Shown: positions 27,730 through 62,000 of the stretch, one piece after another
How the letters are laid out: the number at the start of each line of letters is the position of its first letter
Position numbering within the stretch: the first letter of the stretch is position 1
Assembly (NCBI GenBank): GCA_964187785.1
Contig: OZ076409.1
Coordinates: forward strand, 29,886,001 to 29,950,000
DNA from: Amphiscolops sp. MND2022
Lineage: Eukaryota
Direction of reading: 5' to 3'
Length of the DNA stretch: 64,000 bases
Made by a program: the position numbers and the translations under genes
The notes under the pieces: generated by a model
The model's database searches: none
What the model saw: the letters and a program-made list of their open reading frames with translations, nothing else
What the model was told of the DNA's origin: nothing

Positions 27730-28007
27730 TGTGCTGCTTTAAAGAGTCTTTTATTTTTAGTGGTGGTGGTCTTTTCTCTAGATGTTACAGAGCTAAGTTA
27801 TTAGAAGGATGCTAGCTAGCTGGCTGACTCTACTAAAGCTTGGAGGTCTGAAAAGAGGAATTAAAAGGAAGTCGACTAAACTCTGATCATTAGTTTTCTC
27901 TCTCTGAAGGAGTAGAGTTTTACAGTCATTCAATATTAAATAAATGTACATTCTAGAACATTCTACAAACATCTAAATACTATTGGTTATTAATGTAGGT
28001 CAGTACA
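27730..28007 (-). repeat. 3' LTR of element C
   Basis: Direct repeat of 46344-46621; TG...CA. Confidence 0.96.
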
Positions 28008-28829
28008 TCCATCCCGGTTTTAAATAAAATTAAAATTTTACTTTATATCAAATGAATAAAACAAAGTGAAGTTTTTTGTTTGAATGTTTTTAGCGTTTCA
28101 GCTAGTTCAAATTTTCATTTGATGGATGATTGGCAGAAGTCTTTTTTAAGTTGGTGAGAGTTCGACTCAATGGTAGACATCGAGTTGTCTGTCAAAATAT
28201 GTGACAACTTCATTAGACCTCATATGTGCGACTATAGTTCAAAGGTATCAAAGTGATCTGTTCCACTATGCTTTCGGGCCTATGATTTTGAACTGGTAGC
28301 GGCTCGGTTCTATGCCTTTGTTGAAGCTATTGAATTGGCTTCGCATTTGACAAATCGTGAGCAAACATCATACGAGTTAAAGGTCAAAGAGTCAATGAGA
28401 ATTCTTGTTAAAAAATTTTTGCATCAAGTATGAAAACTGTCTGAAAATATTTCAGGTTGTTTTCAACTTTGGCGGGTTTGTTATATAGAAAATGTTGAAA
28501 TCTTTGCGAAAATGGGCTTCTCATTATTCGAATTGAAATTGAACAGTGTGCTTTATCAATTTTTTAGCTGGTTTTGTTGAAATTTTGAAAAAAATGTTTG
28601 TTAACATTTGATTGAATTCTTTTGTTCTGTGGGATAGAATAGCACCAAAAATAATAAAGAAATATTCTTTAAAAAGTGGGCAAATAAATATCAGTATGGG
28701 ATAAATATCATTGTAAATTAGGGCAAATAAAAACGGGGGGGTTAATTCACTTATTGTATATATAAATACAATAAAGTAGAAATTATCATAATTGAATTTT
28801 GAAAGTTTTTTAAGTTTCATCAAGTACAA

Positions 28830-29561
28830 TGCTTTTTGTCTTGCTTCTGTTCTTTGTTGCTGTTGGTATTATCTGCTTATTGGATCGTCTTGGGTGGTTG
28901 TCGGAATCACTGGGTCGATAGTGGGATCAGCTTGGAAGGATCGATGGGCGGATCGTCTATGGCATTCTTCACTATGGATGTGGAGTCGTCTACTGCAACT
29001 TCTCAGATGATCATTGTTGAGGGGTCCAGATGGTCAATGTTGAGGGGTTCAGACAGCTGATGTTGTGCTGTAACAATCGGAATCTGTTGATGAATGATGG
29101 CTTCAAAATGCAATGTAGGTATAAGTTTTGTATGGAGAATTTTGGTCAAGAAATGTTTCGGGAGGGTCCTCTTGAAGTTCATCATCGGTGGAATCATTAT
29201 CATCCAATGGCCAATAGTGTACGAGATTTTTCTTTTCTAGTGGAGTACGCATTCTATTGGATAGGTTTTTGAGGAAGGGTTTTGGTCGAATAGTGGTATA
29301 ATCCGTCTGGGTTGTAGCATCACACTTTTGAATGAAAGTATCAGGGTGTTTACGCAATTTAAGGTATTGCTCAAAATTTATTTTGTTGATCTGAAAGATT
29401 TGAAACAAATTGAAGAGGAGCATTCGTGTTAGAATGGGGTCTGCTGTTTTCTCTTGTGTAAGCTGGGTATATAATGTTGCAATATGTTTCTTCAGAATAA
29501 GAGATCGGAGTCGAGTGGAAGCAATTGGGAATTCTACTACAGATGTATCATCTGAAGTCAT
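28830..29561 (-). pseudogene. Accessory ORF (3'-most) of element C, unknown product with TQT motif
   Basis: ORF 29103..29561 plus a frameshifted Pro/Asp-rich continuation; same strand as gag-pol-env. Confidence 0.55.
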
Positions 29562-30074
29562 CGTGGTTGAAATGGAGGAATTGAAATGATTAATCTTTGA
29601 AGAATTGTCGTTGTGGAGAGACGTTGAATCGGCGAGTTGAAGGAAGAAGGAAGTTTGACAATTTTCACCTAAAAGAGATTAGTTTGTTCACATTGAAATT
29701 TCCTTTTTAAATAAATTTGTATTGTTGACATTTTTGTGATGTATTTTATTGTATTCTATCTTTTTAATTTTAGGAATTAGGATGGTGTATTTTGGAAATC
29801 TTTCGAAGAATATTTGAACATCTTTCGTTTGAGGTCTCATTTGTTAAATTCGGTTCGTTAAAAGTTGGAAAATTTGAGGAGTTTTGTTGAAAATTTTCAT
29901 GTCCGTTATGAACATTTATGTCATACTGGTATACAAATGTATTCTAATGATTAACATAAACTATGACCATGCATAGCAAGCATAAGTAGGTAAATTCAAG
30001 TTTATTTGACAGGTTGTTAAAGGATTAGGAGATAAATGTTAAAATTCTTAAAGCTTACATCCCATAATTACCAG

Positions 30075-30275
30075 TTAAGATTGTTGGATCTTTTCAAATG
30101 TGTAGTTGATTTCATCTAAGGATGTGCGTATACACGAAGCTGAAGGGCTAACTCTTGTCGTATCAAATGCAAAATTTTGCATTAGATCTCGGGCTTGTTT
30201 AAGTGTATTTACAATATCAGCAATAGTAATGAGTGTATCCTTTTTTGGGTTATGATACCGTTTTAAAATTTCCAT
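30075..30275 (-). CDS. Small accessory ORF (66 aa) of element C
   Basis: Its ATG overlaps the upstream stop (TAATG); intact, helical-looking sequence. Confidence 0.5.
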   Translation of the reverse strand: MEILKRYHNPKKDTLITIADIVNTLKQARDLMQNFAFDTTRVSPSASCIRTSLDEINYTFEKIQQS

Positions 30276-31353
30276 TAATTCTTTATATTTTTGTATTTCT
30301 TCAGTGGGGGGAAAACGTTCTGGTTTAGGAGTGTCAATTGTCTCTTTGGAGGTTCTTGATTTGTCTTTTTGTGTTCTTTGGTATTTCTTTTTGTAAGAAT
30401 TGAGATAAGATGAGAAATAATGAATAATATTTCATTATGGGAGTATCCCGTTTTTGCTATGGCGTAATAATAAGGTTTTTCACAAACTCCAAGAGGTTGG
30501 AAGGCTATGGGATGAATTGGAGGAAGATGGTCTGATATACATTGAGGTATATCTTGTAATAGCGAGTCATCATTCAAGATGAGGTATTCTTGTTTTACTA
30601 TGATTGGTCATTTTGGTTTCTCATTTGGAAGGAAGAGAAAGCTTTGTCATTAATTCTGAGTTTTCCTTTTATTTTGGTATGGTCTATTAGATATTCTGAG
30701 TTGAAAATGAAAGGTGAAGTATATTTCCAGTTGAAGAAGATATAGTTTTCAGGTTCTTTGTATTGGAGGAATTTCTGGTATGTAATATGATGAGCTTTCT
30801 TTATTTGGTTTGGCAAGAAATTAGCATCGTTCTTTTCGGTTCTAAGATCATATGGAGTTGGTCTTAGGAAATTGTATTGAAGTGAGAAAATTTTCACTTT
30901 ATTATTTAACCACCAATCCTATGGGGTGATTAATTTTGATGCAATTGAGGTATGGTAATCATTTTTGAATTCTCTGATGATGAATTTGTATTTCGTTGGC
31001 ATCATATACAAAGAGGTTAGATGGGATTGAAATGTGAATTGGCTTGATGATAAGATGGGAATTAGATCACAATCTCGATCTTCATCTTGTTTTGATGGCT
31101 TTATGAAAAGAGGGCAGGCGCCAGATTCTATAAAAGGTTTATCAGCGGTTATATCTGGATATTTTCTTTTTTGAAATTTTGCGTTTATATGGTCAATTTG
31201 TTCTACTGGAATAGTTCCCATGGGTTCTTGAGTTTGTGGTGAAGATGAATTATTATCTTCGTTAACATTTTGTTGTATAATTATATTCAAAAGGAATGCA
31301 AGCAATTCGGAAGAACTAGAGTTAACTACATCAATTTCAGGCAAGGATTCCAT
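30275..31353 (-). pseudogene. Accessory ORF (~360 aa reconstructed) of element C
   Basis: ORFs 30919..31353 and 30598..30897 share a frame across one TAG; one frameshift joins them to 30275..30577. Confidence 0.6.
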
Positions 31354-31783
31354 TATTTTAACTTGCTTGAATTTGTAGCGCTGAAATAATAATTTTGTTT
31401 ACCAAATAATAAAAATAAGTTAGAACAAATTGGAACGTTAATTTTTAAGGTATTTGTGTTCATTAGTTAAGAGTTTTTTTGAAAATAAAAGTTTAAATTG
31501 TACTTACAATATTGGAATGTCAGTTGTGGCTCAGAAAATCAACAATCACAGTGGCATCTATTCCCGGAATAGAAACTTCTGTGATTTCTAGGATTCGTGG
31601 TTTACAGGGAGTGAAGTATTTTTCCATGTGGGGTATGATGTTCCAAGTGAAGTCGTTTGGTTGGGTTGAGGTAGGCAGCTTGTCCAAGTGAGAATTTTTG
31701 GGTAGAATGAAAGTTGAATTGTGGAGTTATTTGTTGTTGAATTTTTGAAATTTGCGTTTACTTTATTTTATTTGGTTATTACA

Positions 31784-32259
31784 TTTTAGTCGGCGCTTTT
31801 CTTAAGAAAAGAACCCGACTATTAGTCACTCGTTTTTTTTTATTTAAGTCAGACTCGAAGCGACGAACGTTAAAATTAACGTTCAACTACTAAAAACAGT
31901 ACTAAACTACTGGAACGGTAAAGGCAAACGGGGAGCGCATTCATTTACTTTTTAAACGTTACCTACAAGCCCGGACGGGACTAAAGGGTCCCCCTTTTCG
32001 AGTTTTTTTGGCACTGTGAGACTTTTTTTCGAAATTTTTTTAATGTCCCCAAAGAGTCCCCCCTTTGAGTTTTTTGTTATTTTGCTACAGAATGCGTGTT
32101 TATAAATCAAAAAGGGTCCCCCTTTTACATTTTTCGGCACTGTGCGACATTTTCCGAAAAGAATTTTTTTTCGAAAATTTCAAGTTTTTTTCCAAAAAAA
32201 TGTTTTGCGATTTTTGAGCCTTGGATACAGCGCCGACTTGAGACGTTCCCGTCTTGTTT
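31784..32259 (+). mobile_element. Helentron-associated non-autonomous element (HINE-like) nested in element C
   Basis: 5' TTTTAGTCGGCGC with partial IR CCCGACT; 3' GCGCCGACT, then hairpin AGACG-TTCC-CGTCT and TGTTT. Confidence 0.85.
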
Positions 32260-32262
32260 CTG

Positions 32263-34802
32263 TTAGGAGGAGTTATATTTTATGAAGACTTTAGCGGGGC
32301 TTTCCGGTAAAGCTATTACATTTTGTACTATGGGGTCATAGTCCTGAGAAATTTGAGGTGAACTAATATCGTTAATATTCCTTGGGCGTGTCTTTTTTGG
32401 TGATTGAAGTGTCGAATTCTTGCTTGTATATTTAGGAGCTAAACAAGGGGAGTCACTATTGGAGTATCTTCTCATTTTCTTTTGTGTTCCTTTGTCGGAC
32501 AACAGGATATTATCAGTTTCACTTGTGGTAATTTTGTGTTTAGTATATATCCGTTTGCGTTTTCCAGTATTATTTAAATCAGTAAACATTTCCGATGTAA
32601 CTGTATTTAAAAATCCATGGGTTATTGAATTCAAAATGTAAAAGTTGCTTTGTTGATTATATTTTATAGTAATTGGTCAGTAGAATTTAAGTAGGAACGT
32701 TAAAACTTCTCTAATTAAAAAAAAGGTGGAGAAATAAATTCCACATTGTGTTGAAACATAACATGGATACCCAAAAAAATTTATGAAAGCTTGACTAAAC
32801 CAGTCAGGGTCGAAAAGTGGTAAAAAGTTTAACAGGTGATCATGTTCTCCAATCCCTAAATGATTATAAGGATTTGATCCTGTGTGGGAGTGTTGTTCAT
32901 TATGTACTGTAATGATATCATAACTTAATGATTTTCCGAGTAATTGGAGAGTTGTATCTGAGTGTTTTGCGAATAATACTCTATTCCAGAATTGATCTAA
33001 TTCTGCATTCGAGTATATACCGGCATCTTGAGCGGTAAATGTATTGGGTGTTATTGTTGTCTTAATTTGTGTAGGTTTGAACATTTGTGGTGCTTCTCTT
33101 TTGAGCGGGTCTGGTGTTAACACATAAAAATCTCCGTCATCTGTATCTGGATCTAATTCAAAAATGTTTTGCGGGTTATTTCCACTTTCTATTGGTGTTA
33201 CATACTTAAACGTTTGTCTTGTTATGGGCTCTACATACATTATAGTTTCTCTATAGTGTATGGGGATTCTATCAAAGCATTTATCTGCTTTGTATAGAAG
33301 TGATATAAAATGAGGGCAATCATACAGCCATGCTGTAGATCCTTCAACATAGAGGAAGTTACTGCGATTTCCAGTTAAATGGAAACCGGCTAATTTAGGG
33401 TTCTTAACTGACATAGCTAAGATTGTTAACAATTGTGTTCTTTCTAATTCACATACTGTGTGAAGAGTATTTAATTCTTGTACTGTCATAGATTTAAATA
33501 CATGATTTATTGTGAAGTCAATTTTTGTATTGATATGAGCATCATAGTCTAGAGTGGCGAAATTGTTTGATACATTTAGTGCGGGGAATTTATATTTCTG
33601 ATTAGAGGTATCAAATTGTATTCTTCCACTAATGTTTTGATCTATTATTGAGTGTGGTCTCGGTTGTCCATTATTCATATCAAAACCAAATAGGTATGTA
33701 ACAAAGATGTCATCATTTTGTGTTGAATATAATGGTTCTGGTTTTTCACAAAAGGTTTGTGCAATTGGGTATATCTCAAATCGAGAAGAATTTGGGTTGT
33801 CTACGGTTGATTGTGGTGTTTTGACATTGGAATTTTTTGTTCCTTGGATTCCTTCGCTTTGAAGGTTTTGTGTAATATTTGAGGGTTCGATAAAGTTTTC
33901 AGTTTCTATCCAATATCGGTCATTCTTCCAATTAATTCTTGTAATCGAAAAATGAGACAAAATTTTTCATCAAATCATATTATTGTGTATGGGGTTCTTG
34001 TTGTTGGTTTACAAAATCCGTCTGAGTGGTAACACGGTAGCATGTATCCATCGTGAATCATTTGGTTGTTTTTATCAACATATGTTATTTCAGCATTATT
34101 TATTCTGAGTTTCCAACTTTTTCGAGTGATTAAATGTTCTCTGTCACTTCTACTTCTTGAATAAGTATTTTGTCTGAAGTTAACTATCCAGTCTAGTGTG
34201 GATAATGTTCATCATACACGAACGTTCCGATATGCCAAGCATTTAGTTTTTTTACTCTGAATGGTTGTTGAACTTGTTCAATTTTTTTGGTAATCACTAT
34301 CATCAAAAAATGAGAAGGAACTTTGTATATTGTAATTGTTCAATTCGTTACTACCGGTCGCGTTTAAATATCTTATCATATTTTTGCATTCAAAAGGGTC
34401 AAGTATTTTTAGAATTTCTAATGTATTTTGTCCCCATTGTAAACGATCATATCGTCTACTAGATGAAAAAGTTTGTGAACACCAAAGTTTTTCAGTTTTT
34501 ATATATGCTTCACATTTGAAGGCTTTGATTTTTTTGCATTTGCTCTGACGTATACTGTTGCTTGGGTCTTTGTGTTGTATATCTGAGGGTGCTCGTTTAC
34601 ATGGTTCAACATTTAGTAAGCTAAATTGTCTTAAGTTATTTTGTTTTGCACAATCATAAAGGGATACCATAAGGTTCAAGATATTTGGATCTTGTTCTGA
34701 AATTTGATTTTCTGAATTTGTTGTATCAACTTTAGGAACTGATGTAGAGTTAACAATGTGTATTATATATGCAATATTTGCATTGAAAAATATGCTTTTC
34801 GT
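32263..34802 (-). pseudogene. env: env: class III-like (herpes gB / chuvirus G-type) fusion glycoprotein
   Basis: Mutated start (ACG) and leader; LYDC near the N-terminus; CELER..L...A....NP..AG..LTG....F....G...WLYDC; KCFDRIPIHY....MYVEPITR; C-terminal TM (GIYFSTFFLIREVLTFLL) and tail. Broken by frameshifts. Confidence 0.75.
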
Positions 34803-34804
34803 GG

Positions 34805-36240
34805 TTAAAATGTAGTTCTATAGTAAAGTCCTGAGAAGGGATTAAAGAAGTTTATATGACCTGTTCTAATTTCTGGTAATTCAGCGTCACAAAGATAAGA
34901 TATTGATGTGACTAAAAACGGTGAGGGAGTTGTTTTATGTGCTACTCTTGTTGAAAGAGAAAATGGATGGGGTTTTAAGGAGTTGATTGTAACTTCAACT
35001 TCGAAGTTCAATACTAATTGATCTTCTTGTAATAATCGTAGTTCTCTTTGTTTTCTTGGGTTTGAAAGAGAACTATTGTTTATAAATCTATCTGAGAGTA
35101 CAGTGTATCGAGGATCTTCGTTAAGACTACGAATAATCTTTGAGTTAACACCAATAGGATATTCGTGTGGCATTGGTGTAGGAGGTCTCGAATATTCTTC
35201 TAGAAAATATTCGGGTTTTGTATGGATGAATCAGATAGTTTTGAACTAGGTGAATAAACTCGTGAAACGTTTGCTGCACTATCTGATATAGTTTGAGGAT
35301 CTTCTGAAAGGAGGGATGCTGTTTCAAATTCTGATGTGACTTGAAATGGTAATGATAGAGAAGATGGTATAGTGGGGTGGGATGAGGAAAGAGAAGAAGT
35401 TTCTGATCTGGGTTGTGCTTGTTGTCTAACTAGTCTTTAATTTGTACTGGAACTAGTTAAAGGTTGTAATTGTTTAGAATTTCTTCGTGATTGGGATCTG
35501 AGGTTATAACTATGTCGCGGTACTCTGGTACTAGCAGTTGAATCAGAGTCTTTATCTTTGTAATATAGGTCTGTTAAGGAAGAAGTAGTGTTTGATTGTA
35601 GGCGGTCTAATTCTAGTCTTGGGTGTACTTGAGAAAATGTAAATGAACTTAGTTCAGATGGTGAACTAACTATATGTTCTGGTATAGTTTTTATTGGGGA
35701 TTGACTTGTTGATGGTAGAGCAAGGTTCTTTGGTAATGTTGGTATAGGAGTTTTTCTAGGTAATTTGGTTGCAGTCGGTATTCTATGTGGACAAGAATGA
35801 ACGTATTGAAGAACTGAGCTAGGATCAGGGATATGAGGAGTACGAGTGGTAGGAATTGGTGGAAGAGGGGGTCTGTTTAGGATACTTGAAGTATCTTGTA
35901 CATTGTTTTGGGTTGTAAGTGATTCATCACAAGAATCACTTGTAGTTGAACTTATTTCTAAAATGGTAGGTTTTGTTGAGTGTATTGTGGTTGAGTTGTT
36001 ATAATATTTTGTGATTGAATTGTTATTACTGGTGTTTGAGTTTGAAGTATGGGTGTATTATTGGGCGTTACTGTTGCTCTATCAGGAGAATATGGAGCAG
36101 ATGGGCTATGATTTGAGGATGAGGAATCCAGTATGTCTGTATCTGAATTTAGGTATGCGGTATATTCAGGTAGTGTTTGGAATGAATGGGTTGAACTAGA
36201 TGATGAGTTGTTTCTGTTTGATGGAGGTGAGTGTCTATGT
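34805..36240 (-). pseudogene. Ser/Thr/Pro-rich extra ORF (or Pol extension) between integrase and env
   Basis: Low-complexity coding-like sequence with a YNLRS motif, ending in the ordered-looking ORF 34805..35173, which stops 2 nt before the env start. Confidence 0.5.
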
Positions 36241-36399
36241 CTATCAGTCTTGAAGTCTTTTTAATTTTAAATTTCAGTTTATGTTTCAGTTTCAATTTCT
36301 TTTACTTTTCTTTTTATAGTATCTTTATTCAGATTACTATCTATAACTATTCAGCTCAAACTTTTTTTCAGCAGGGTTTTTGAGAAAACGAAATTATAT

Positions 36400-39300
36400 C
36401 CTTTTCACCGAGGAAATGTCGATAGTCTTTTCGTGGTTGTGGGCGGAAATTGTATTTGTTATAGATGTGTCTTCGGGGATTATTATAGTGGTCGTAGTCA
36501 TGAATATTAGATTGGTTTTCTGGGTTGGTATTATTGGTATTTGTTAATTTTGTTGGTACGGAAATAGGGAGTATTGGTTGAATGATTCTGGTTGAAAATC
36601 AATTGTAAATGGTATATCCGTTTCTTTACTGGAATTTGTAAATGTGTGGTCTTCGTCTTCAACTGATTGTTCTTCATCGGAAAAAGAATCAGAAGGCTCT
36701 ATTGAGTCATTTATATTCGAGTCATTATCAATATTATCATCTTTATTTGAATATGGATTATATTGTTGTATGAAAGGAAAATTGATGGGTTCCTGTGGAA
36801 ATACGGAACTAAATGGTTTCTGTGAATATGAGAAGTGTAACCATCTTGATTAACAATTTCAGATGTAATATCAGAAAATTTATTAATGATTTTAAATGGT
36901 CCAATTCTGAGAGGTTTCAATTTATCTGAAAAATGAACATGGAGAAAATTCCTTTTTAGTACAAATGTACCAATGTCTAAGGGTCTTGGATTATTGTATG
37001 TTTTATTGAAATAAGCAAATGAAATAATTTTTTTTGTGTTTTCGTAGACTGTGTGATATATTTGTATCATAGCAGTGCAATTTCAGTAGCCAAAATCCCT
37101 TGTGGAATTGGTTTCGATAAGATTTTATGGAAGACAGGGTTTAAATTTGATTTGTCATAATGTGTATGAAGTGGTAAGTCCTGACAGTATTGAGAAATGC
37201 AGTTTCTATAAGTATCTTTTTGAAGATTGAGTTCAACGTTTATTGGGATTCTTGGTATAGTATGAAATAATACTTCGTATGGTGAAAGTTTTATTTCAGG
37301 AAGTGGTTGTGAATTATGTGCATAAGCGTACATATGGACTTGGGTAGACCAGTTTTCTGGTGTGTTATGTAGAAAAAGTCTGAGATGGGTTACAAGGTCT
37401 TTGTTTTGATTCTCTACTAAACCTTTTGTCCATGGTGCGTAAGGAGTTCTTGGTGAATGCCTGATTCCCATTGTGGTACAAAGGTTTGTAAGTTCAGAAT
37501 TAAAGTATTCTGAACCACGGTCTGTAACAGAAAATATGGGAGGTCCAAATTTAGTAATCCAATGAGGTAGTAGGGAATTGACAGCATTTTGAGCATTGTT
37601 TTGTTTAACAGGTACTGTTACTACAAAGTGGCTGAAAGCGTCAACTGTCACATGAATGTATGAGTTTTGTTTTGATGGTGGATTTTTAGGTCCTTTTGTA
37701 TCTATTTATATTCGGTAATTGAAATTTGAAGCATTTTCTGAAAATGTTTGTTTTGTTGCAGTTTGAATTTTTCGATTATTGTGTTTGTTTTGTTGACATT
37801 CAATACAATCGTGAATGAATATTGACATCCATTTATATAAATAAGGTGGAAAATAAAATAGAATAAAAGTTTTGATGGATATTTTAACTCCAGAGTGTCC
37901 ACGTGCATGAAATTTATTGAAAGCTGCATGAAAGAGTTTAAATGGTAAACATACTTTGTCTTCTTGATTTGGGTTTGAATCATGAACGTTAGGGTAATCT
38001 ATATGAATGATTTTTGTATCATGGTTGATGTACAGTTGATTGAAGAAATTGTAGTAAACCGATGTGAGGAATTACTTGCTATTGTTGCTTTTGTTGGATC
38101 TATTTTTAAAGGTCTTTCATTAGTCTTTAATCAATGGTAAACCTTTTATAATACAAGGTCTTGTTTTTGTTGAGATTCTATAGTTTCAATTGTTATTTGA
38201 GTGTCTTCTGGTAGGAAGAAATAATGAAAATATTTTTTGTACTTGAAGAAAGATGGATCAAAAAATGGAACTTGTTGATTACAGTAATCAGATTCAGTGG
38301 GGTACTGTATTGCTAGTGTTTGTTCTTTTGATGTGTTTGTGTTTTGATTCTTCGTATTTTGTGATTGATTTGGCCCGTCTTCATCACGAAGAATATCTGT
38401 GTCATTGAGGAAAGTTGATTGTTGTACGAGTGATTTTACTCGAGTCTTTGTAGGTCTAATGTATTTGGATTCAAGTGGAACAATGGATTGAAAAGAAAAT
38501 GAATCTAATGGTTTCATATGAATGTCTTCTCCTTTGTTGTTTATGCGAATGGAAAATTGGTCTTCGCCATAGTCAGCGAGAATTGGGTGGCAATCATTTT
38601 TTTGATGATGTTTGATTTCTTCATGTTTTACTAAAAAGTGTACGGGTTTGAGTTGGTACACTTTTCATGATAGAGAAATCTTTTTGAGGTGGCAATTGTT
38701 TGTGTCGTAATCGATGTATTTGAAGTTGGTCTTTTGTGAAAGTTCTAGAAAGCATGTCTGCTACAGTTAAATTTTTTCCAGGAGTATGAATCATTTTTAG
38801 TTTAGAAAATTTTGTTAGTTGCATTTGTGCTTTATGAAATCTTGGGCTAAGGTTTCCTTTTTTTGCAAAACAGTGTAATAAAGGTTTGTGGTCCGTGAAG
38901 ATGTACATCGGATGAGGGGATCCAATCATGAGAAATTTATATATTTGTAATGCATAAACTATTGCGAGGAGTTCTCTGTCTAGTGTTGAAAGTTTTTGTT
39001 CTTGTGTATTAAGGATTTGTCAATTGTAAGAAAAAACTCTCATTTTATTTTTTTCATTCATTTGGAATAGGACTGCGCCTATACCAACTAAGGAAGCATC
39101 AACTGTTATGAAAAATGGATGTTTTGTATTGGGTATGGTTAATTCAGTTTCTGCTGTCAGTGTGTTATTAACGTCGTGAAATATTCTTTCTATTTCGGGT
39201 GTCCATTGAAATTTAACATCATCAAATAACAAGGTATATAATGGTTTGAGATTTATATGTAGTTTTTCAATGAATTTTGAATAAAAGTTTACACTGCCTA

Positions 39301-41280
39301 AAAATTGCATAACATTTTTCTTTTCTTTTGGTGATGGGATTCTTTTGATGGCTTCATTTTTATTGGGAATGGTTTAATTGTGTTGTTCCCTATTTCATGT
39401 CCAAGGAATTGTACTTTGAGTAACATATAAAAAGATTTTTCAGGTGCAGGTTTGAGATTTTTTTGTTGCTATTTTATGGAGTTTTCTGATAAGTTCAATT
39501 ATTTCTTGTTTTTCGTCTGCTAATTGTAATATAACATCAATATATACTAATGCAGAACGTTTGTCTATAAGTGGTCGAAAGAAAGTTGACATTTGTTTTG
39601 TAAAAAAAAGTAGGAGTCTTTTTATTCCATAGAATCCACGGATAAAGGTATATAAATTATCTCCGGATGAAAATCCTGTAAGTTTGATTGTTTCTTCGTC
39701 TAATGGAGTATGAGCGTATGCAAACAACAAATCAATAGTTGATTTGTATTTTTTGTTAGCTCTAGCTAATTGAGGGGCTAAAGGTTCTTGAAGGGCTGAA
39801 GGTTCAATGGGCCAAGATTCAAGTTCTTGATTAGTGTTTGAGTTTAAATGTCTAGCATCTAAAACAATTTTTATTGCGGCTCCTTTTGGGATAATGAATA
39901 AAAGAATTTAAAATGTTGTTCCAATAGTGTGTTTTTTATCTGGCGTGGAGCCAATTTGTTTTATTATGTTATATCTTTCAAGTTCTACTAAGAGTTTGTT
40001 AGTCTATCTCTGTAATGAATTGGTACTTTAGAGGGTCTTTGTGTTTGAAGATAACAATTTACTTTAATTCTAATTCTGAATGGAGTAGAAATTTTTCCTA
40101 CGTCATTTCGACGTTCAGCGTTGAATTGATTAATAATAAGGATATTGCAGAGGCTTACATATTCTGTATCAGTTAAATCTGAATATTCAAAGTTGAACTA
40201 TTTTCTGAATTGTTGACTTTCTGCAGTATATGGTAGTGAAGGAAAATCTTTTCTAATTTTATCTGAGGGTCGAAGATTTCCTGTGACAGAAGGTATGGGT
40301 AATTGAAGTGTTTTATGATTTATTTCTATTTTGTTGATTTCTAATAAGGACTGTGGGATTACTCGAGTACATAAATTCATATCGGTAATATCATTTTGTC
40401 TAATTGGAATGGTAGTATCAGGATGCTAGGCATGTATTACTGAATGAATAAACGAGTTTATATCATGAACGCTATAATGAGGAGGTGTTGTTTGAGTAAT
40501 AGTGATTTCTATATATCCAATAATTCCTTTTGGTAGTGTAGCTGGATGAGATGTAAAATTTTGAATTACTGTTTAGCAGGACTCTTTGCTTTTGTCGTTG
40601 ACTGTCATGTCTAAGAAGTGAAAAATATCTTTAAATTTTTGTAGGAAATATGTATATGGAATTGATGGACAAAATTTGGTATTATCTTCCAGTTCAAAGT
40701 GCAAGTTAGGATAATTTTTGATTGGGAAATGTATAGTCTTTCCTGATCTTGGTTTGAAGTGATTTGGCTCTTTACATTTAATAGTATAAATGTATGAGAT
40801 ATATGGGTAATCCTTTTCTGTAAATGTTGAGAAATGTGTTTTTGTAGGAAGTTTTGGATGTTGTTCTTTATTAGTCATGATATTTTGTTGAAAGTCTATA
40901 TATTGAATATTTTTCTTGAAAAAAGGTGTTCCAAGAATAATATATTTAATAGTTGCTACTGCAAATTCGATATTGAAAGATCGATTTTGATGATTTACTT
41001 CAGTAAAACATGTCATTGAAATAAAGTGTATTATTGGTACTTCAGTTTGATTGGCAACTGTGAGAGTTTTAGCTCTTTTGTTTTCAATATTTTTGGAACA
41101 TTGTGATTTAATTGTTTTGCAATTACATGAAGTGTCGGTAAGTTCAAATTTGATATGGAAGCTCCAGTATCTAAGAGGAATAGGATTTCTAATTTTGAAG
41201 GTAATATGTTGTCTTTTCGATCAAAAGCATGTACATATAGTGGATATAAACCAACTATAAGGAGTAATTGTTTTTGCAAT
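36400..41280 (-). pseudogene. pol: pol (protease, RT, RNase H, integrase) of element C
   Basis: FLLDTGASIS; RT FAYAHTPL/ALVYIDVIL; FLGSVNFY; ITVDASLVGIGAVL; IFTDHKPL...ADMLSR; integrase VDAFSHF...VTDRGSEY...GLVENQN; GPF module. Confidence 0.93.
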
Positions 41281-41299
41281 TTCAGTTATTAGGCATATA

Positions 41300-44200
41300 T
41301 GAATTTCAAATTTAGTACTATCGCATGTATGAATTTCAAATTTAGTAGTATCTTTGTCGTTGGTAGATTTAACATCTACTTGTTTTTTTTATATTTTGTT
41401 GTCTGTTTCGTGATGATCGTCTAGATCATGATCTGTAATCTCTTGGTCTAGATGGAGATCTATACGGGTAAGTGTATCGTCTAAAAGAGTTTCCTTGTGA
41501 TTGAGAACGAGATCTATATCTTGATCGTGAATTATATCTATAATTGGAGTTGTTTCTCTATGGTGATCTAAATGGAGATCTGGATGGATTTCTTCTTTGA
41601 TAATGATTGTCATATCGGGATCTAGATGGGTATGGACTTGGAGATCTATTGTAATATCTTTGTCGAGAATTAGATCGATAATTATTTTGTGAATAATCTC
41701 TACTGTTGCTTCGGTATCTGTCGTTATTTCTACAACGGTCATTGTAGTAGGGGTAGTTATTTTGATTATATCTGTTACGGTCGTTATCTCTAGAAAAATA
41801 ACCATTTTTATTTTTATTTCGATTTTCTTGTGAATTACTAGGTTTACTACGGAAGTATTGTACAAAGGATTGTTGAGGAGTTCTTGATCTCTGATTTTTA
41901 TATCTTTGATATTCTTAATCACGTTGTTTTTGATAACAATTTGAAATACTATGATTGTTTTTGTGACAATAAGAACATTTTTTTGTAGGCTGGTTTGCTT
42001 TTGTTATTTGGGTCTCCAAATTAATTGAGTAACCATTGTATGGTCATATTCTGATTCTTTGTTGTTAGTATCATCTTCAATTGATACTTCGTTTAATTCT
42101 AAAGCTAGATCATTTGTTCTTATTTTTCCTTTAGCGATATCGTCAGATCAACATGTCGAACAACTGTGTGAAATGGTATTGATGGTTCAAGTAATGTTGG
42201 TCTGCTGTGAGCAAAATCTTTTATTTTTTAGGTAATCTTTTTGTGCAATTATCATTGTTTTTGAGATTTATGGTAGATGCACTTTCACTGCACCATCCCT
42301 TTTTAACTAATTGTTGTACTCTAAGAGCAAAATGGCGTACTGTTTCATTATCTTTTTTCATGAGTGACATAGCTTCTACTAGTGCGTAATAAGCTGTTTT
42401 TTGAGATGAAAATTGTTTTTTAAATAGTTGTACAAATGAAGTCCATTGTTGTTTATATGATATATGGAGATTAGTGTACCAATCAAGAGCTGTTCCAATT
42501 AAAGAACATTGTATATATGCCATGCGTCTATTATGCCATGACCTACATTTTATAGGATTATATTGAGCTTCTTCACCTATAGCAAAGGTTAGTCTTGCTT
42601 CAACTTGTTGTAAAGATTCTTCTGGGGTGTATGAAAAGTCTAAATCGTCAAAAGGTTTCATAGGTTCTGGTATTGAAGCTGAAGTATTTATGAATGTATT
42701 TTGTTGTATTGGCATATACTGAGGTGGAGGAACTACAGGTTGTATCTTGTTTACGGGTGGTGAAATTGTAGTAGGGTTGGAAGTTTTATGTTGATTCATT
42801 TGATATAGAGAGTCAGTAGATATATGCGAAAGTGGAGGATTTTGGGATCTTCTTTGAGAGGGTTGTAAAATGTTTGAATAAGATGTTCTTTGGTTTTGTA
42901 AAGGAAAACTACTTTGTGAGGAAATAGTTTGTGATAAATGTGCGTATGGGTGTTGTGTCCTTGGATTGTTATTAGGTTGAGAAATATTTTGAGTATTGTT
43001 TGTTTGAATATTTGTATTAGATGGTGGAACAAAGGAATTATTAAATGGATCATAGTGTTGACTAGAAAATTGTTGGTTACTTTTACGATTAATTTCTGAT
43101 TGAATTGTTTTATTCGACTGCTGAAAAGCAGAACAAATTGGTGGAGGATCATATATAAATCGAGTTGTATTTCGTGTATTATTAGAAATAGACCTTGTAG
43201 GTGCTAAAACAAAAACAAAAGTATCACGGGTTGAAGTTATATTTTGAGTTTCATCTTGTACTATATCATCTGGGTGAGTTGGAAGAGTAAAGGTGTTATT
43301 ACGATGTGGAGATGTATCTAAGTATGATTGCGGTTCATGTGTATTTTGTCTTGGGCTAACAACCCTAGTTGGAATTCTAACAAATTGAGAGATTGCTGAT
43401 GTCTCAGTTTGTGATGCATTTTGTGCTGAAGTTGTAGATTCTGAAGTGGTATACTCACTTGCATTGTTTTCATTTATGTGGAGTAAAATATCTTCGTTAC
43501 GAATTTCAATTTGATTTTCAAATATGTATTCTTCATTATTATTGTCGTCTTCTTCATTGTTATTGTCATTGTTGGTAAATAGGTTTTGTTGTTTTGAATA
43601 TTCTGTTCATACCGATACGGTCTATCATCATCTTGAAAATTGTTTTCTTTAATTAAACGAGGATCAAAAGATATGAGATCCATGGTTTGTTGTGTTACTT
43701 TATCTGGTTTGAAAAAGTAAGGATGTTCATTTTGTTCGTTCATGATGAGTGGTAAACATTCATCAGCTGTAAAATGATTGTGAAATGTTGCGAAAGCAGG
43801 TTGATCTTGTTCTGACCATAATAGTTGATAATTGAATCTGAAATAATTTCTAAGAAAGAAGGATATCACTTTAGTTTGAGGTATTGTTTGTTCGTCTAAT
43901 GTTATATCTTTGAAAGAATGATACAGGAAATGTTGTATTCGTAGTATATCTGCTTGTGACCAATGATGATGAATTTTTTGAGTTGTAATTATTCTTTCTA
44001 TGTCTTCTACTTCGAAATTGTGTATTCATATCGTTCAAGTTCTTCAAGTGCATTTGGGCTAAATTTTGGGTTTTCAAGTGCTAAGTTGTATTCTTTCATT
44101 GGGGACTATTGGTATTATTGTTCTTCTATATGTTTGAAAAGAGGAGGTTTCTTGTTGCGGAAAAGTAATTTGGAAAGATTGATATTCCGTAGAGGCAGTT

Positions 44201-44600
44201 GTAGATCTATGTCTAATATAGAAGAGGTATGTATCCAGATGTTCTCTAATAAGAGGAATTGTTTCAAGGCTGTAGGGTTCATTTTCAATTGAAAGTGGTT
44301 GAGTATAATTGTAAACAATGTTATGTAAAAATGGTTTTTATTTCAGTTTTTACTATTTTTGCATTTTTAATGTAAGGTATCTCAAAAGGTGAAGGGAAGA
44401 TACTGAGGAGTTCATGTTAGAGATTACTTCTTATTGTTGTAAGTATCTTTTCCAACAGGATGCAAAATAAGAATAAAACAGAAAATGTATAAGTGGTGAT
44501 AAGTATTATTGTGGTAACTTTTTCCCACAATATAGATTGTCTAGATTCAATGTTGAGAGTTTGTTATAATTATAACATTAGTTGCAACCGTTGTGACAAT
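41300..44600 (-). pseudogene. gag: gag of element C with long N-terminal extension and RS-rich C-terminus
   Basis: Capsid-like PFD...YTPE..LQQVEARL...L.GTALDWY...W..FVQLFKKQF...ETVRHFALRV; CCHC knuckle CSYCHKNNHSISNC ~41930-41980; RS/Y/N-rich tail. The 5' boundary is approximate. Confidence 0.8.
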
Positions 44601-46343
44601 GATTGTTTCTATTGTGTGTATGGTAGTGGTCAAAAAGATTAATAAGTATAATCTATTTTGTTAATATGTATGAAGTTAAAATTTTGTTAGAAGTTTTAAG
44701 TTGGTGATCTTGGGTAATTTCGTTGTTGGTCTAAAAGATAGGAAAAGAATTGTGCGTATTGTTGACTTAGTCTTTCAAAGTCTGCAGCTGAAGGGTTAAA
44801 GATTGTACTGAGTTGATGTACAACTAAATGCGTAGGAACAGTTAGTGAAGGAGTAGAGAAAGGTGAATTGTCGGAAGTTTGGTTATGTGTGTTTGAGTTA
44901 ATATTTTTTAAAATATGAAATAAATATGAAATTGTCTGGAGTTTTGGTATTGTTAGGGATAGAGAAGAAAGAAGCGGATGCAATAGAATCTGTATTCAAC
45001 CTCAAAAGATTGCTAACAGAATCTGAGTTGTGATTTAATTCTGGAATAAATTAAAGTGTCTGACATAAGGCCACTGACACGTCCAGTAAGAGTTGTATTT
45101 TAGAGCTGGACTTCAATTGAAGTGTCTAACATAAGGTTACTGACACGTCCAGAAAAGCTGAGAGAATTTTAATTTTAAGTGGGTTGTGTGTTTTAAGACT
45201 GACGGAGCGGAACTCTGACCAATCAACGTCCACTATCCAAAGTCGGATCAATACTGATCAAGATCAAAGTTTGATCTTTTGTGTGTTTTACTTTTTACTT
45301 TTACTTCCTGAGAATTTCGAAGATTCGAACGTAGTTCGGTGTCCTCAAGATTCTCCTTGATGACGTTTAAACTTAACTAAGGTGTTTAGTCAGCTTAGAA
45401 TCAGACTACGCAAGTTAAAATAAGGTAGGGTCTGATTGTTTAAGTCTTACGGGAGGGAATAGGAATTGTGGGTGCCTGAAAGTATAAAACTACCTTTACA
45501 GTGTGTTTTTTATTTTTATCTCCTATTTTAGATTTTAGGGCAAAAGAGTTGTGTTAAAATTTTATGTGTGGCTTTGTTAAAATTAAATGTTTTGTGAGGA
45601 TGGGTTAAAATGATTGACTAGATTGGGAATTTTGTCGACAGAAGATTGATAACGAGAGTTTTGGTTGCTTTTTATGGATTTCTGATTCTAATTCAGAGGG
45701 TCTTTTTTTGAAGTTTTTTATTAGAAAATGGATCCAAAACGAAAGAATAGAAAGTCAGGTTTTCTGCCAACACGAAGTTGATCTTGAAACGTATATGCTT
45801 ATAGGTGAGATGAGTCTAGTATGCACTCAGTCAACTATTACACCAGGAGTCCACCTGACGTTCAAGATAGCAGGATTGAAGAATTTATTGCCGTGTCAAA
45901 GGTGTTAGAAAACCTTGATAAACCGGACAAAACTGTTTCAACAAGCTTTCGGATAACTGTGATAAATCAGTATGGAGAACAGAACTTTGTCACTGTGGAT
46001 AAATCAGTCTGAAAATGTACTGTGTCAACGTGTAAGAAAACGTGATAAACCGGCAAAGCAAGAAGAACAAAAGAAGAACCGTGTCAACGTTTATAGAAAA
46101 ACGTGACAAACCGGAATTGGAGGAAATTTTGTTATTTTTCAGATGAAGAAATTTTTTGTCTAACAATGATGTATTTATTGAAGAAATTCAAAAAGTCACA
46201 GACTAGATTTTCTAGGAAATCTAGAACAATTTCACTGCAATCCAAAAGAATTTCAAAGACAAGTAGTGGTAGGTGTTGTATTGATGAGAAAAGAGAAAGC
46301 ATTCAGCTGAGAAAAGAAAGAATTTTTGCAAGTCGCACCAAAT

Positions 46344-48089: not shown

Positions 48090-48648
48090 AACAAGCCGGG
48101 ACCGGCCCAAGTCGGCGCCATATCCAAGGCTCAAAAATAGCAAAAAGACTTCCAAGTGTCAAGTATTCTTTTACAGAAGTCGAAAATCGAAAATTTTTCG
48201 AAAAATTTTTTTTTGAAAAAATTACATACTAAAAAAATTGGACCGAGTGGCGCGCCGGGGCTCGCTAGCGCGAGCCCCTGGCGCGCTAACGTCTCACAAT
48301 GCCGAAAAACTGAAAGGAGGAACCCTTTGGGATTTTCAAACATCCATTCTGTCGCAAAACATCAAAAAAATGCAGGAAAAAAGATTTCGAAAAAAAAATT
48401 CCGAAAAAAAAATGTCTCGCAGTGCCGAAAAAAATTAAAAGGGGGCCTCTTTGGTCTCTCCCGGTATGGTATGTTACGCGGAAAAACAGGTAAAACCATT
48501 TTGGTCCAGTTCGCTAGGCCAAATGGTGCAATTTGACACCATAATATTTTGTAGAACTTTTAAGAACTATTTTGGTCAGTTCGTGTGGATAGAAAAAAAA
48601 GAGTCACTATAATAGTCGCGTTTCACTTCATGAAGCGCCGACTAAAAA
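48090..48648 (-). mobile_element. Helentron-associated non-autonomous element (HINE-like), young copy
   Basis: Near-identical to 22503-23075, with the same termini and internal GC hairpin. Confidence 0.85.
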
Positions 48649-48649
48649 C

Positions 48650-49700
48650 ACTACATATGCTTTTGCATTCGTCATTTACACGAAGAGACAATGAGCGTCA
48701 GCTTTTCCTATGCAAGTGTGAAGCAACTAGAAGTTGACAACTCCAGTTTTGAGACGTTATTGAGACTGGTGGTCTTTTTGTTTTTGTGTCAAACGCGAAG
48801 TGGAACATCTAGGTGAAAAGATTGGCAATGAAACCTGCACTATCAGTCATTCCAGTGAACAATTGGATGGGGAGTTGAGAGGACCGCATCTCACTGGACA
48901 TCATCTCTCAAACACCAGATGATTCATCGTCAACGAATTGTCCCTGTGGAAAGTCCAACAAAAACGAAGGGAACGCGAGCTACTCAATTTGCTGTAACAT
49001 GCGTCCGCTGGTATAACAGAAATTGCACCACATTGACGATCCAAGATATGAAACAGGCAGTGAATTTGTCTGGGACGTGTCATTGTCGCTCAGCTCCCCC
49101 TAAAGTTCGACGTTTTCCGCCAGTTATATGGATAGCATTTTCAAAGCAGTTGAAACCTAAGATGTCAAGTTAGCTTCAAAAGCAGTATACAAAGTCCATA
49201 ACATTCTCGTGTTCACTTTCGAAGAAGAACATAAAAACTCGCCTACTTTCTTGGATACGTTGGTTAGGAGATGAGCAAATCAGATTCCAACAACCTCATG
49301 TTCTGCCAAGGCGACAAAGACAAAACCAAGCGACACTGGAGATGATTTCGTTCCGCAGTGTGTCCCTGAAAAGGTACAAAAGAAAAATTGTCAAGGGAAC
49401 TGTTCGGTTGATCAAGCAGGCAACATCTTACTGGCAAAGGTTCTTTGGTCGCACAGAAAAAGCGAAGTAAACTTGGGAATTAGAATCCGCAATCTTTCTA
49501 CCATCTACCATGATATAGTCGCGAGATACCGGACAAGTCAATCAAGAAATCACAGAGCCAACATTCACGTACCAGTAGTGGAGGTCGAGAAAGTAATTTT
49601 TTTGGAAAAATTACAATCGAAGGAGTTCCGTTTTTACAACGAAAAAGTCAAATCGTGTCTCCCAAGTATGAAAGTTAATTTTCGGCAAGTGCCGAAAGGG
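48650..49700 (+). pseudogene. Penelope-like retroelement RT fragment with internal PHD finger
   Basis: KWNI*VKRLAMKPALSVIPVNNWM (motif B'); Cys-rich insert; SYMDSIF (motif C); VHNILVFTFEEEH....TFLDTLVRR; KPSDTG; YKRKIVKGTV...ATSYW (thumb). Confidence 0.8.
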
Positions 49701-51274
49701 CCGCAAGGTCCGATTCCAAGGGTTATACGCCGATTGCGCCAAAGTCGAACCTATTGCTGACGTACATTTATTCTGTAACTTGCAGCGTGCAGCGTGAATG
49801 TTCATTTTGTTCACATAGCCATCACTTTCAGAATTATTTACAAGATTTATCATTTTTTAGTTATCACTCAGGCTATTTAGTCGCCTATATGTATTTTTCA
49901 CCAGGGATTGAAAATCATGTATTGCATTTTTTTGTCTCCCTAGCACTCATTTAATGTTACTCAAAAACAATGTCGTTCATTTAATGCTTTCATTGTCATT
50001 AATTGTTGAAATCGAAATAAATGCTACACGTTATTGTCAATAGCCTTTGGGACTATTTATGTTCAAAAACAGCTGATATTCAAATTGTTCAGGTCTACGC
50101 CACTGTCGAAATTCTTCAAGGAAGAACTTTGCTTTACTAAAAACGCCGCGTTCCAAGATGACTTTCCGCATTCAGAGGAGGTTCGTCAATAGGTATTACT
50201 TTGGGTAGTGTAACTTATTGTTGAACAATAAATGCATTTAATGAAATACACAATACATTACTTTCAATCCCTGGTTTTCACTGCAAAATATGCCTAAATC
50301 GGAACATCCTCGCAGCTGCAAGAACTGCAGTATCACAACACAAATTATTGAAATTTTTAAAACTATAAAACAACAAACTGCACATCCTATGCAGTTATTG
50401 TACTAGCTCTTTTAAGTGCAGTGAAACGAATCATGTTAGGCACCATGTTAATGCAGATATTCACGAGAAAAATGTGTCAACAAAAGTGCAGCAAAAAGTC
50501 ATTTATTCATGATCGACCAAATTGTCATGACTCTACTGTTAAAAAGCTTATGTTCATTAAGTATAAGGAATCTCTTTGAGCAATAAAAAGTTGTTTCGCC
50601 AAAAAACAATGTTTTCCTAGCCAAAAGAGCAAAAACTGGGCCGATTTCGGAGCCAAAAATTAATTTTACAGGCCGAAATTTAAAGTTTTTATTCCTAAGC
50701 CACAATATTTCTTCCAAAAAATGCTTTGAAAGTCGAGTCGCCTACGATGTAATGTCCCTGTTGGAACGCCTGCTATGTCAGATAAATTATCCGTCATTTG
50801 ATGACTAGACTCTCGGTACATTTGAAGAATTTTTCACCAATTAGACAACATTTTGAAAGTTGCGGCGTGGGTTAATGGTCACTTGGTTTAGTCAATTGGC
50901 CTAAATTCATTTCAATTGAAATCGTTTGACTTAACGTCATTTTCGTTATGAATTTAGTCACTTGCTCAATTGTTTTGAACCAAATGTCTCAGCTACATGG
51001 TCACGTGATCTAAAACCATTTGGCTGAAAATTTCTGAGCTGGAAACGCGTCGCAGATTGTGTCGAAATTTTTATTATGAGGTAGTCAGCTATGTTCTCAG
51101 ATCCCTAAAGCCCTAAAGGCAGGAGCGAATTGAAGCGGAGCCATATCCAATGCCTCAGTGTTGCCACTTGGCGGTGGGTGGCAAAGCGACCGCGCCATAC
51201 AACAAATATGTCAACCATTTCAAAAATATTCAAAGCTCTTCTGCTGTTTGAGACCTATTTTGTAAATTTGGCTT

Positions 51275-59048: not shown

Positions 59049-62000
59049 TTAATTTAGTCTTTTCTGGTATCTAAAGTCTTCTGAGTAGTTTGGGTTAGGG
59101 TTAGGCCTGAGGTTATATTTCCCTCCTCTAGGACTCAGACTTTCATATCTGTCGTCATTTTGCGATATTTCGGGCACGGTAAAATCATCCCCTCTTTTGG
59201 GAGAATTTTGTGCATCGTTTTTGTTAGCCGAATTTTCTTCTGAAAAATTTGCATCGTTTTCTTGTCTCTCAGACAGATCCGGAAAAGATTTTTCTTGATA
59301 TTTGTTGTTAACGGCCGAATCCGGCCAATAAGAGTTTTCATTTTTGTCAGCTTCATTAGCTTCATTTCTATTGGTGACGTCACATTTCATTTTTTAGTTT
59401 TGACTTTGCGCTGCATCGTTGACGTCATTTGGACTATCAGTCGTGATTATATAATCCGCTTCATTCTCGTGTGCGTCATTTGAATCCGCTTCTGCCGTAA
59501 CCGGCTGTTCGCCATTCGGCAAGTTAGTCGGAATCGGCTCGTTGCCTCGTGCAGCTAGCTGGTCATCGAAGTTTGTTTCCCACGTTAGTGTATAGAAGTC
59601 GTCTTGCGGAATGACAATTTCTTCGTCTAGGAAGTTGTCATCAAGCGGTTGAGTGGGAACGAATTTTTTAGGGCAAAATCGATGCAAGATATCTGTTTCG
59701 TTTGTATTTAGCCTGCCGACGATGTAATTCTCATTGAATAGAACTTTCTGGACTATAAATGGTCCAACCCAACGATAATCTCTGAACGGGATCTTTGATC
59801 CTTGGTGATCAGCTTTTGGCTGCAGTACAAAACAGTAATCGTTTTCTTTGAGTGGTTCCGCTTTTGCTTTGCGGTCATAATATTCCTTGTATTTAATGTA
59901 GGATTGCATGATATTCTGCTTCGTTTTATCAATCAGGAGTTTTGTCCGGTTCTGGATTTCTTCCGCGAATTCACTTGTGTGAGTGATTTTGTCGTTTGGA
60001 TTATATCCAAGCTTGTGATCCAAGATATTGTATGGAACTCGTCCATGGAATACTTTTGTTGGTTCACAACCGATACTTGCGTGATAACTCGTGTTGTGGT
60101 TCAGAACTGCTAATGGCAAGTATTTATGCCATTGTCGGCGACACTCTCCACATGCCCATTTTAGGTTCGTCTTCAATGAGGCATGGGTACGCTCCAGTTT
60201 TCCGATCGTTTGCGGGTGTTTTTCGTCGCACATTTGAGAGTAATTCCCAAACTTTGCGTAATCTCCGCAAAAATCGTAGATGTGAATGCAGTTCTTTTAT
60301 CCGCAATGAGCGTCGTTGATAGGTACGCTTGTTTCGTCATCATGTCGCTGAGCACTTTTGGTACATTGATCGCTGAGGCATCCGTAAGAGGATAGGCGAA
60401 CAGATATCAAGAAAAGACATCAATTGAAGTTAGAACATTTTCATATCCTCCACTTGGGGGAAGATTCGGCAATAAGTCAATCTGCATGACATTTTCGGGT
60501 CCAAGGTCCCATTCCGGCAAGTTAAGTAGTTCAGGCGTAATTGTTGCGTTTGGGACGCGCTTGTCCCTCGCGCATTGTTCGCACCCTTCTACCCACGTTT
60601 TAACATACTTTGCCATGTTAGGGAAGTAATGCCTCTGTCTGATCTCCTGTAACATCTTTGATATGCCAAGGTGCTTGTTAGCAGTCCCGTAAAAAGACTG
60701 GAGCAGTTCTTGGAGTAGAGTGAGTGCTGCGGGAGCAGAATTTGATGGTACTTTACGTTCCCCGTTTCATCGAAGTATTGCCTGGTCAGGACTTCAATTC
60801 GTTCTAATTTGCTTGCATAAAGTCGGTATCGAGCATCTTGCGTGATGGAGTTTTGCGTTCAATTGCTGAAGTACTGTATCCTTGGATTGTTCGATGATTA
60901 TTTGGTTCGTTTTCCGTAATCGGTCTTGTATTTCAGGTTGTTGTTTAACCAGATTTGTGGAGAGTGTTTGGATTGTTACAGCAGGTTCTGCTATGGCGAG
61001 ATTTTTCCCGATTGCTTCTTTCCTCGCCCAGTATTGTTCTTCTGTGTCATCGTCATCAATAGTGTAGAAGATTTGCTCTTCCTGTGAGACCCCTGTTGAT
61101 TGGACAATGATTTCGATTGGTAGGGTTTGTACATCTTCACGGATTTTCATGACTAATTTGTCTTTTGGGTCGGCTCTCAATCGGGACAGGTAATCCGGTG
61201 CCGTATTCTGTGCTCCTGGTCCTGGGATGTGTGCTATGACAAAATTGAACTGAATGACAGTCACAAGCGTTCCACAGGGCTTGGGGTACGATTTTGGTTT
61301 GAAAAAAATGTGTGACGGCTTTGTTGTCTGTTAGGATGGTGACCGGTTTCGGCGCGCCCCAGAAAATATGCCCAAATACTTTGAACGCGAAATAAATTGC
61401 GAGGAATTCTTTTGCATAAATGTACATTTTTATATGGGCGGAGTTGAAAGTATTTGAGCCGTAGGCGACCAGTGCATTTGCGGATTCCGTAGCATTTGCG
61501 GATTGAAGTGAGTTTCTGACTTGGGTCATCTTCTATGAGTAGTGCGTATCCAGCAGCACTAAAACTTGCATCTGTCATCAGTGCGATTTGTTTGTTCGGA
61601 ATCGGTTGTTGTAGGGCTAAGTTGCTGCATTTGTCTAGTGCTCGATTGATTTCTTCAAATTGTTGAACCAATTCTTTTGATACTAGGACAATTTCGTCAC
61701 TTTTCAGCATATTGTTGAATGGAGCAAGGCGTTCGGAAATTCTTGGGACGTAGTTTCTGTAATAGTTCAAGAATCCCAAATACTATTGTAAAGCCTTTTC
61801 CGACTTCGGAAATTTGGTTTTTTCAAGAATGTTCTGAACGTTCTGTCTTTGGGGTTTGACACCTTGTGGGGTAATCGTTCGTCCAAAAAAATCACTTTCT
61901 GTGGCACCGAAATGACATTTGTGCATTGTCAATGTAAAGCCTGCTTCCTGGATGCATTTGAATATTGCTCTCAGGTTAGCGATGAGATGATCAGCGTCGT

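Follow-up and report, generated by a model that had tools for sequence, protein, structure and literature searches.

Endonuclease-bearing (EN+) Penelope-like elements (PLEs) of the Penelope/Poseidon kind, such as Poseidon of Anolis carolinensis (PMC11167929), have a single ORF of about 850 aa with a DKG motif and a reverse transcriptase (RT) resembling telomerase. They end in a C-terminal GIY-YIG endonuclease (EN) with CxxC..H..H and without a CX2-5CxxC linker, and are found as tandem and inverted truncated copies with tails and a minimal hammerhead core in the pLTR. The elements described here share all of these features. They differ by a 60-90-aa insert bearing a PHD finger, which sets RT motifs B' and C 95-126 aa apart instead of 32-39 aa, and by an N-terminal GPKH in place of GxKF/Y.

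PHD fingers are also carried within the polyproteins of five Chlamys PLE families of Chlamydomonas, at RT2a-RT3(A) or inside the EN, three of the five lying within the RT (Craig et al. 2021, PMC8557442). An initial sequence-only reading of our locus, which knew of no PHD inside the RT palm, therefore has to be amended. Unlike the Chlamys elements, which belong to green algae and have an N-terminal EN, ours are animal elements with a C-terminal EN and the PHD at the RT4(B')-RT5(C) site, so that the domain was captured independently.

The nearest PHD sequences are of the kind carried by the CR1/Crack LINEs, whose ORF2 is described as having the layout 2A-like(NPGP)-PHD-APE (PMC3708506); a VT[YFW]RG.S[IV].C loop is shared in some cases (P0241, P0252, P0261). 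That layout, however, places the PHD on the N-terminal side of the APE endonuclease, outside the RT. The best solved match, by sequence and by fold, is the Pygopus PHD (PDB 2vpb, 2vpe, 4up0; PF27108), whose W366, V350, A356 and I357 equivalents are kept here. The acidic EVND loop of Pygopus is replaced by a mostly basic one, the D352 and Y341 equivalents are mostly absent, and 16 of our 28 aligned rows end in CxC, not CxxC.

We searched the literature on PLEs with PHDs and on acoel PLEs, with subscription papers, Repbase notes and bioRxiv supplements outside the scope, and among the papers listed none pointed to a B'-C PHD or to such a finger in an animal PLE with a C-terminal EN. In bioRxiv 10.64898/2026.07.22.740005, the sole occurrence of 'PhD' is a fellowship. 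Within the literature covered, the B'-C site and the animal, C-terminal-EN PHD clade are new and were undescribed before.

A decayed PHD-bearing element in the window

The window, that is, the whole stretch of 64,000 nucleotides analyzed from Amphiscolops sp. MND2022 (contig OZ076409.1), contains a dead, decayed, 5'-truncated PLE on the + strand. The copy is alignable to its sister copy L002 from 48710 onwards (67% DNA identity, 397 nt), and the DNA match, profile match and codon check assign its truncated 5' end together with RT motif B' to 48710..48878. The motif B' region covers 48780-48875, with the peptide KWNI*VKRLAMKPALSVIPVNNWM at about 48798-48869. Six-frame translation and codon check located the RT and PHD peptides at the place first proposed, on the + strand. 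The earlier count of one stop ahead of the PHD has to be raised to two, a TAG at 48810 and a TGA at 48876.

An N-terminal linker, variable between families according to linker identity among the 28 rows (48879..48944, + strand), leads from the B' helix to a decayed C4HC3 PHD finger at 48945..49086 (+ strand; profile, codon check, and Pfam PF00628 in intact relatives). On the + strand, the finger is read as NCPCGKSNKNEGNASYSICCN at 48936-48998 and, past a frameshift at about 48999, as CVRWYNRNC...GTCHC at 49000-49086. Its positions are C48945, S48954, C48993, C49000, W49009, N49015, C49024, C49078 and C49084. The domain had been recognized correctly as a PHD finger from its pattern; the first pair, given as 'C-x-C', is in fact C48945 with the mutated S48954, where relatives have CxxC. 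Two ligands are mutated, as first counted: C2 has become S (48954) and H5 has become N (49015), with C and H in relatives. The usual W ahead of C7 is also lost.

The C-terminal linker (49087..49121, + strand; six-frame translation, codon check) holds a second frameshift, at about 49115-49121, which restores the B' frame. There are therefore two frameshifts around the PHD, cancelling each other, and not the single one initially described. Motif C (SYMDS, 49122-49136; RY[VM]DD in relatives) lies in the same frame as B', 101 codons off. It begins the stretch of motifs C, D and E and the thumb start (49122..49490, + strand; profile positions 437-671), with a further frameshift near 49340. A B'-PHD-E profile built from 28 related segments matched the B'/motif C frame with E=5e-16 and the shifted PHD half with E=1e-4, so the likeness to RT and PHD is not due to chance. 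Pfam detected neither PHD nor RVT_1 in the decayed copy. The subfamily is old and decayed, with at least part of the insert in seven sister loci (L002, L004-6, L015, L029, L031).

Downstream, a GIY-YIG endonuclease remnant of the same copy (CxxC..Y...RH.....H; 50747..50872, + strand; iE 3e-7) shows 76% DNA identity to L002 over 87 nt. Between RT and endonuclease, the repeat search identified a MITE-like stretch of 376 bp with 32-nt terminal inverted repeats (84%) at 49900..50275. The truncated 5' end is abutted by common dispersed repeats outside the PLE (48090..48650, edges approximate and set by eye), where the PLE profile gives no match; similar sequence lies beside the unrelated PLE copies L064 and L068. 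Secondary DNA insertion of the PHD block was rejected, since no TSD/TIR pair brackets the insert, which is in-frame and length-variable in all intact frames.

Elsewhere in the window, a strongly skewed 18 kb on the - strand (28000-45500) was taken by eye, from the standard-code ORF list, for the decayed remains of a large LTR retroelement, its frames resembling gag, pol, integrase and env. A mitochondrial insert was tested for this skewed region (28-46 kb) and rejected. Further LTR-element integrase-region fragments were noted by eye at 6264-6905 and 59394-60296.

Intact PHD-bearing families in the same genome

When the element's own genome was searched with the peptide from the window, 49 of 89 candidates matched, and an 853-codon frame was present in 4 of 30 loci examined. 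The locus L016:172-2721 (P0001) is an unbroken 850-aa frame, in which Pfam places RVT_1 at 335-480, PHD at 494-543 (29 bits, cut-off 24) and GIY-YIG at 757-833; its motif C is RYVDD (555-559). Two further families have intact frames, of 890-905 and 895 codons, and several others are nearly intact. In the three intact families (850-905 codons), an RT with the PHD between B' and C is followed by a C-terminal GIY-YIG. We are almost certain that this architecture, namely an N-terminal domain, an RT with PHD, a thumb and, at the C-terminus, a GIY-YIG domain, is real. The lineage that the sequence-only reading had postulated from one dead copy thus exists as intact ORFs with the PHD in frame, in many copies and in more than one genome, and an intact relative passes the Pfam PHD cut-off.

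Among 11 long frames, all contain the DKG motif and 10 have GPKH as the N-terminal motif (clade motif: GxKF/Y). In 10 of the 11 the EN shows the CCHH pattern, its two Cys lying between GIY and YIG; in L076 the pattern was seen by eye. The stretch from thumb to EN has 0-2 Cys in 10 frames (L076 unparsed) and hence no CX2-5CxxC linker, which excludes Neptune and Nematis. Splicing of the PHD as an intron was unsupported: the RefSeq model XP_063728136.1 skips motif B' along with the PHD, so the splice is not PHD-specific.

PHD-less PLE families (L121-L135) with intact 817-818-codon frames occur in the same genome and provide a ready internal control. Because intact PHD-less PLEs share the genome, PLEs can survive in it without the domain.

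Recent activity and copy structure

The PHD-bearing family is large and recently active. Its copies, both those arrayed head-to-tail and those dispersed over ten large contigs, match the L016 unit at 98.5-99.6% identity. Many of the dispersed ones lack the 5' end, have an inverted partner and carry a tail on one side. Loci L019, L038, L039 and L160-L163 show partial tandems, 5'-truncated copies in inverted orientation and a tail of 30-40 bp. Insertion sites are of varied sequence and often lie in other repeats. About 14 head-to-tail units of 2743 bp make up contig C1820 (G000:C1820:1-39181; L034-L036).

This 39-kb contig is, over its whole length, a tandem of full-length units with several intact ORFs, which is unusually long for a PLE. 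A second kind of array was seen in L094 (G000:C533:1-7656) and L095 (G000:C1:26598556-26608500), where a 216-nt in-frame piece is repeated head-to-tail 18 and 28 times. The piece corresponds to motif C to thumb start of the intact family; the arrays run into a normal 3' end and stay open over 1198 and 2152 codons. They look like the product of repeated template jumping or of a rolling circle, and L094 and L095 may represent a single locus that entered the assembly twice.

By pattern search, a putative hammerhead core (CTGATGA-stem-GAAA plus a 4-nt palindrome) was found in 6 of 7 PHD-bearing pLTRs and in both PHD-less UTRs searched. An Rfam scan of six loci returned no hammerhead. The core, with its palindromic 4-nt loop, resembles the minimal PLE ribozymes described in PMC4209133. 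We also observed a T-rich run ending in AG, like a splice acceptor, 1-12 nt upstream of each hammerhead core, in the pLTRs of L016, L064, L076, L060, L068, L073, L121 and L125. The end of the Penelope intron is described likewise, as a T-rich/AG run upstream of the hammerhead (PMC4209133).

A single gain of the insert in the RT tree

To determine how widely the insert occurs, we turned to protein databases. Ten full-coverage relatives at 41-98% were recovered, along with dozens of 50%-clusters having both RT and PHD, many of which are decayed fragments. With the RT upstream of the insert as the sole query, ten more PHD proteins were found. The B'-C spacing proved bimodal: of 131 parsable proteins, 31 set the motifs 97-124 aa apart, and 98 of the remaining 100 set them 32-39 aa apart. 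Among 113 new proteins, 10 have the PHD, 2 a Cys-free insert and 79 a spacing of 33-34 aa; 22 were unparsed. The insert is absent from all matches named as corals, rotifers or tapeworm. A scan of JGI metagenomes yielded 7 loci of 62 pattern matches, nearly all to the PHD part alone, and aligning against longer proteins gave one hit among 4623 candidates.

In the RT tree, computed with the insert columns removed and with 12 distant PLEs as its root, the 28 rows that have a PHD group as one clade (support 100/99) nested among 46 PHD-less PLEs. Its sister is a PHD-less marine clade, and the PHD-less families of the host and the 12 distant PLEs fall outside. Tree rows are unnamed or host-named database proteins, without Repbase references; the frameshifted row L077 and the gappy row L062a were left out of the final tree. 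Since the PHD rows form a single nested clade, we infer one gain of the PHD, with no loss seen.

Two PHD families are absent from the element's own genome, where their best matches reach 58% and 56%. One of them has members in Symsagittifera roscoffensis, with XP_063722202.1 in its 90% cluster, and XP_063728136.1 of the same species retains the C-terminal end of the PHD. The clade is therefore present in more than one genome, including that of the acoel S. roscoffensis.

The PHD-less sister PLEs P0367 and P0368 have an independent, low-complexity insert of 38 aa without Cys in the same B'-C loop. Group II intron RTs carry an insertion named '4a' near this loop; our literature search for 'RT4a' insertion found nothing.

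Conservation, fold and origin of the PHD

We then compared the conservation of the PHD with that of its surroundings. Each zinc ligand is kept in 26-28 of the 28 rows, and all eight are kept in 23. Mean identity is 39% for the PHD (27% without the ligands), 9-10% for the linkers and 49-56% for the flanking RT. In the closest pair, the PHD is identical at 41/50 positions, against 42/49 and 40/53 in the RT. Judged from these sequences, the PHD domain is under selection.

The finger could also be a passenger tolerated in a permissive loop, its ligands being kept since a misfolded insert would harm the RT. Indeed, the loop takes other inserts (38 aa in P0367 and P0368, about 18 aa in P0016), and the identity of only 27% outside the ligands would suit such a role. 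Yet no clean loss is seen across the deep branches of the 28 rows, though a deletion would restore the ancestral 33-aa loop, and the PHD of the closest pair is conserved as much as the RT. We regard a passenger as highly improbable.

AlphaFold2 gave a pLDDT of 90.4 overall, with 79-89 in the PHD and 63 and 68 in the linker blocks, and the B' helix and motif C hairpin are intact in the model. RT and PHD are predicted to fold as separate modules, with two low-confidence linkers between them. The predicted RT is nearest to telomerase, the top three Foldseek hits and the top ten VIA-align hits (Z 14.9-16.1) all being TERT. The predicted PHD superimposes on Pygo PHDs with an rmsd of 0.8-1.1 Å over 54-57 residues. 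Atlas searches offered no more than leads, with best scores of 0.80 and 0.78; PF27108 is the family PHD_Pygo.

The likeness to Pygo bears on another possible role, as a module for protein contact that would dimerize the PLE protein or recruit a host factor. The nearest solved PHDs are those of Pygo, where the back face of the PHD is reported to bind BCL9/Legless (PMC2726290), and the Poseidon protein is predicted to dimerize (PMC11167929). Against such contacts, the surface formed by the helix and loop 2 is poorly conserved here and no partner is known, which makes this role improbable.

As to the donor, NPGP lies at most 15 residues upstream in 8 of the 15 best non-PLE PHD domains and is present in 16 of 38 control proteins. 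Because the nearest non-PLE PHDs often follow this 2A-like motif, as in CR1/Crack ORF2, the sequences point to a LINE donor, and a single capture of the PHD from such a protein is likely.

The putative histone pocket and the surface charge

Fingers of the PHD type are frequently histone readers. In Pygo, the cage for K4me2 is described as having W366, Y341 and D352 as walls and V350 and A356 as base, and with the substitutions W366E, V350E and A356E H3K4me binding is lost altogether or nearly so (PMC2726290). The equivalents of W366 and V350 are invariant in our PHDs (28/28 each), and the A356 position is S, G or A in 26 of 28. The other two walls are mostly gone: of 26 PLE PHDs parsed, one has D at the D352 position, where 15 of 51 control PHDs have D or E, and four have an aromatic residue at the Y341 position, compared with 18 of the 51 controls. 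Control PHDs have the W in 45/51, V or I in 42/51 and the small residue in 44/51. Being this common in controls, the pattern may be partly structural and is no proof of selection for histone reading. A predicted complex of the PHD with host H3(1-30) and two Zn scored 0.02, in a run made without controls, and weighs neither for nor against binding.

The surface also departs from that of Pygo, which is acidic. Net charge averages +2.8 and reaches +10, with a basic T-R-R-G loop, while control PHDs average +1.2. We therefore considered that the PHD may serve as a nucleic-acid-binding module, in which the basic loop and the helix would grip template RNA or target DNA beside the palm and so raise processivity or template capture, with histones uninvolved. 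A net charge of +4 to +10 in most CGC-ending families, an R at position 504 in 17 of 28, the loss of the acidic and aromatic cage walls and the location of the domain inside a polymerase all fit this explanation, as does the report that VEL PHDs bind negatively charged polymers and not H3 (PMC9640981). It fits less well that the PHD of some families is neutral or acidic (L073 -8, P0116 -6, L084 -3), which sits poorly with a shared role, that the pocket divider and floor are invariant, and that control PHDs are slightly basic too. Nucleic-acid binding is a possible role of the PHD, if a somewhat unlikely one.

The reading we prefer is that the PHD tethers the element to chromatin through the H3 tail, and we consider the chances that it is right to be about even. 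The PHD would hang off the outside of the palm, a position that we presume from RT structures, and would bind the histone H3 tail, probably with K4 methylated to a low degree. Bound to H3, it would hold the RNP on the nucleosome, and the GIY-YIG domain would then nick nearby AT-rich DNA, at which the RT would prime. Target-primed nicking and priming are reported in vitro for Poseidon of the anole (PMC11167929). The outcome would probably be a broad bias or a gain in efficiency, without a fixed target site. Counting against this reading are the mostly lost Y341 and D352 walls, the basic charge of many of the PHDs, the intact PHD-less families in the same genome and a comparison of insertion flanks. 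In this crude test with 45 PHD-bearing and 14 PHD-less 3' flanks, some counted twice, the two groups did not differ in GC (0.389 vs 0.389, P=0.96) or in CpG o/e (1.01 vs 0.92, P=0.55).

Meaning for retroelement biology

Transposons have long been known to carry PHDs, whose roles have only been guessed, and chromatin choice by target-primed retroelements is largely open. The present system offers a clean test, since young, intact families with the PHD share one genome with intact families that lack it, and since the PHD is a self-contained domain in a loop of known ancestral form. The B'-C loop of a telomerase-like RT, moreover, proves able to carry a folded domain of 50 residues through a deep radiation, a point of interest for engineering fusions into retroelement RTs. 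RT annotation is affected as well, as Pfam RVT_1 ends at the insert with a score below the cut-off. Together with the algal Chlamys cases, PHDs have been captured by PLEs at three different sites.

The PHDs vary between families: the first Cys is preceded by D, by Y/F or by another residue, and the surfaces range from acidic to strongly basic. A further idea, which we rate as unlikely, is that the families have retuned a palm-borne reader of histone marks for different chromatin states, partitioning the host genome by mark. Chromoviruses have integrases with chromodomains. If true, the clade of retuned readers would be the counterpart of these chromodomain integrases in a target-primed, telomerase-related RT.
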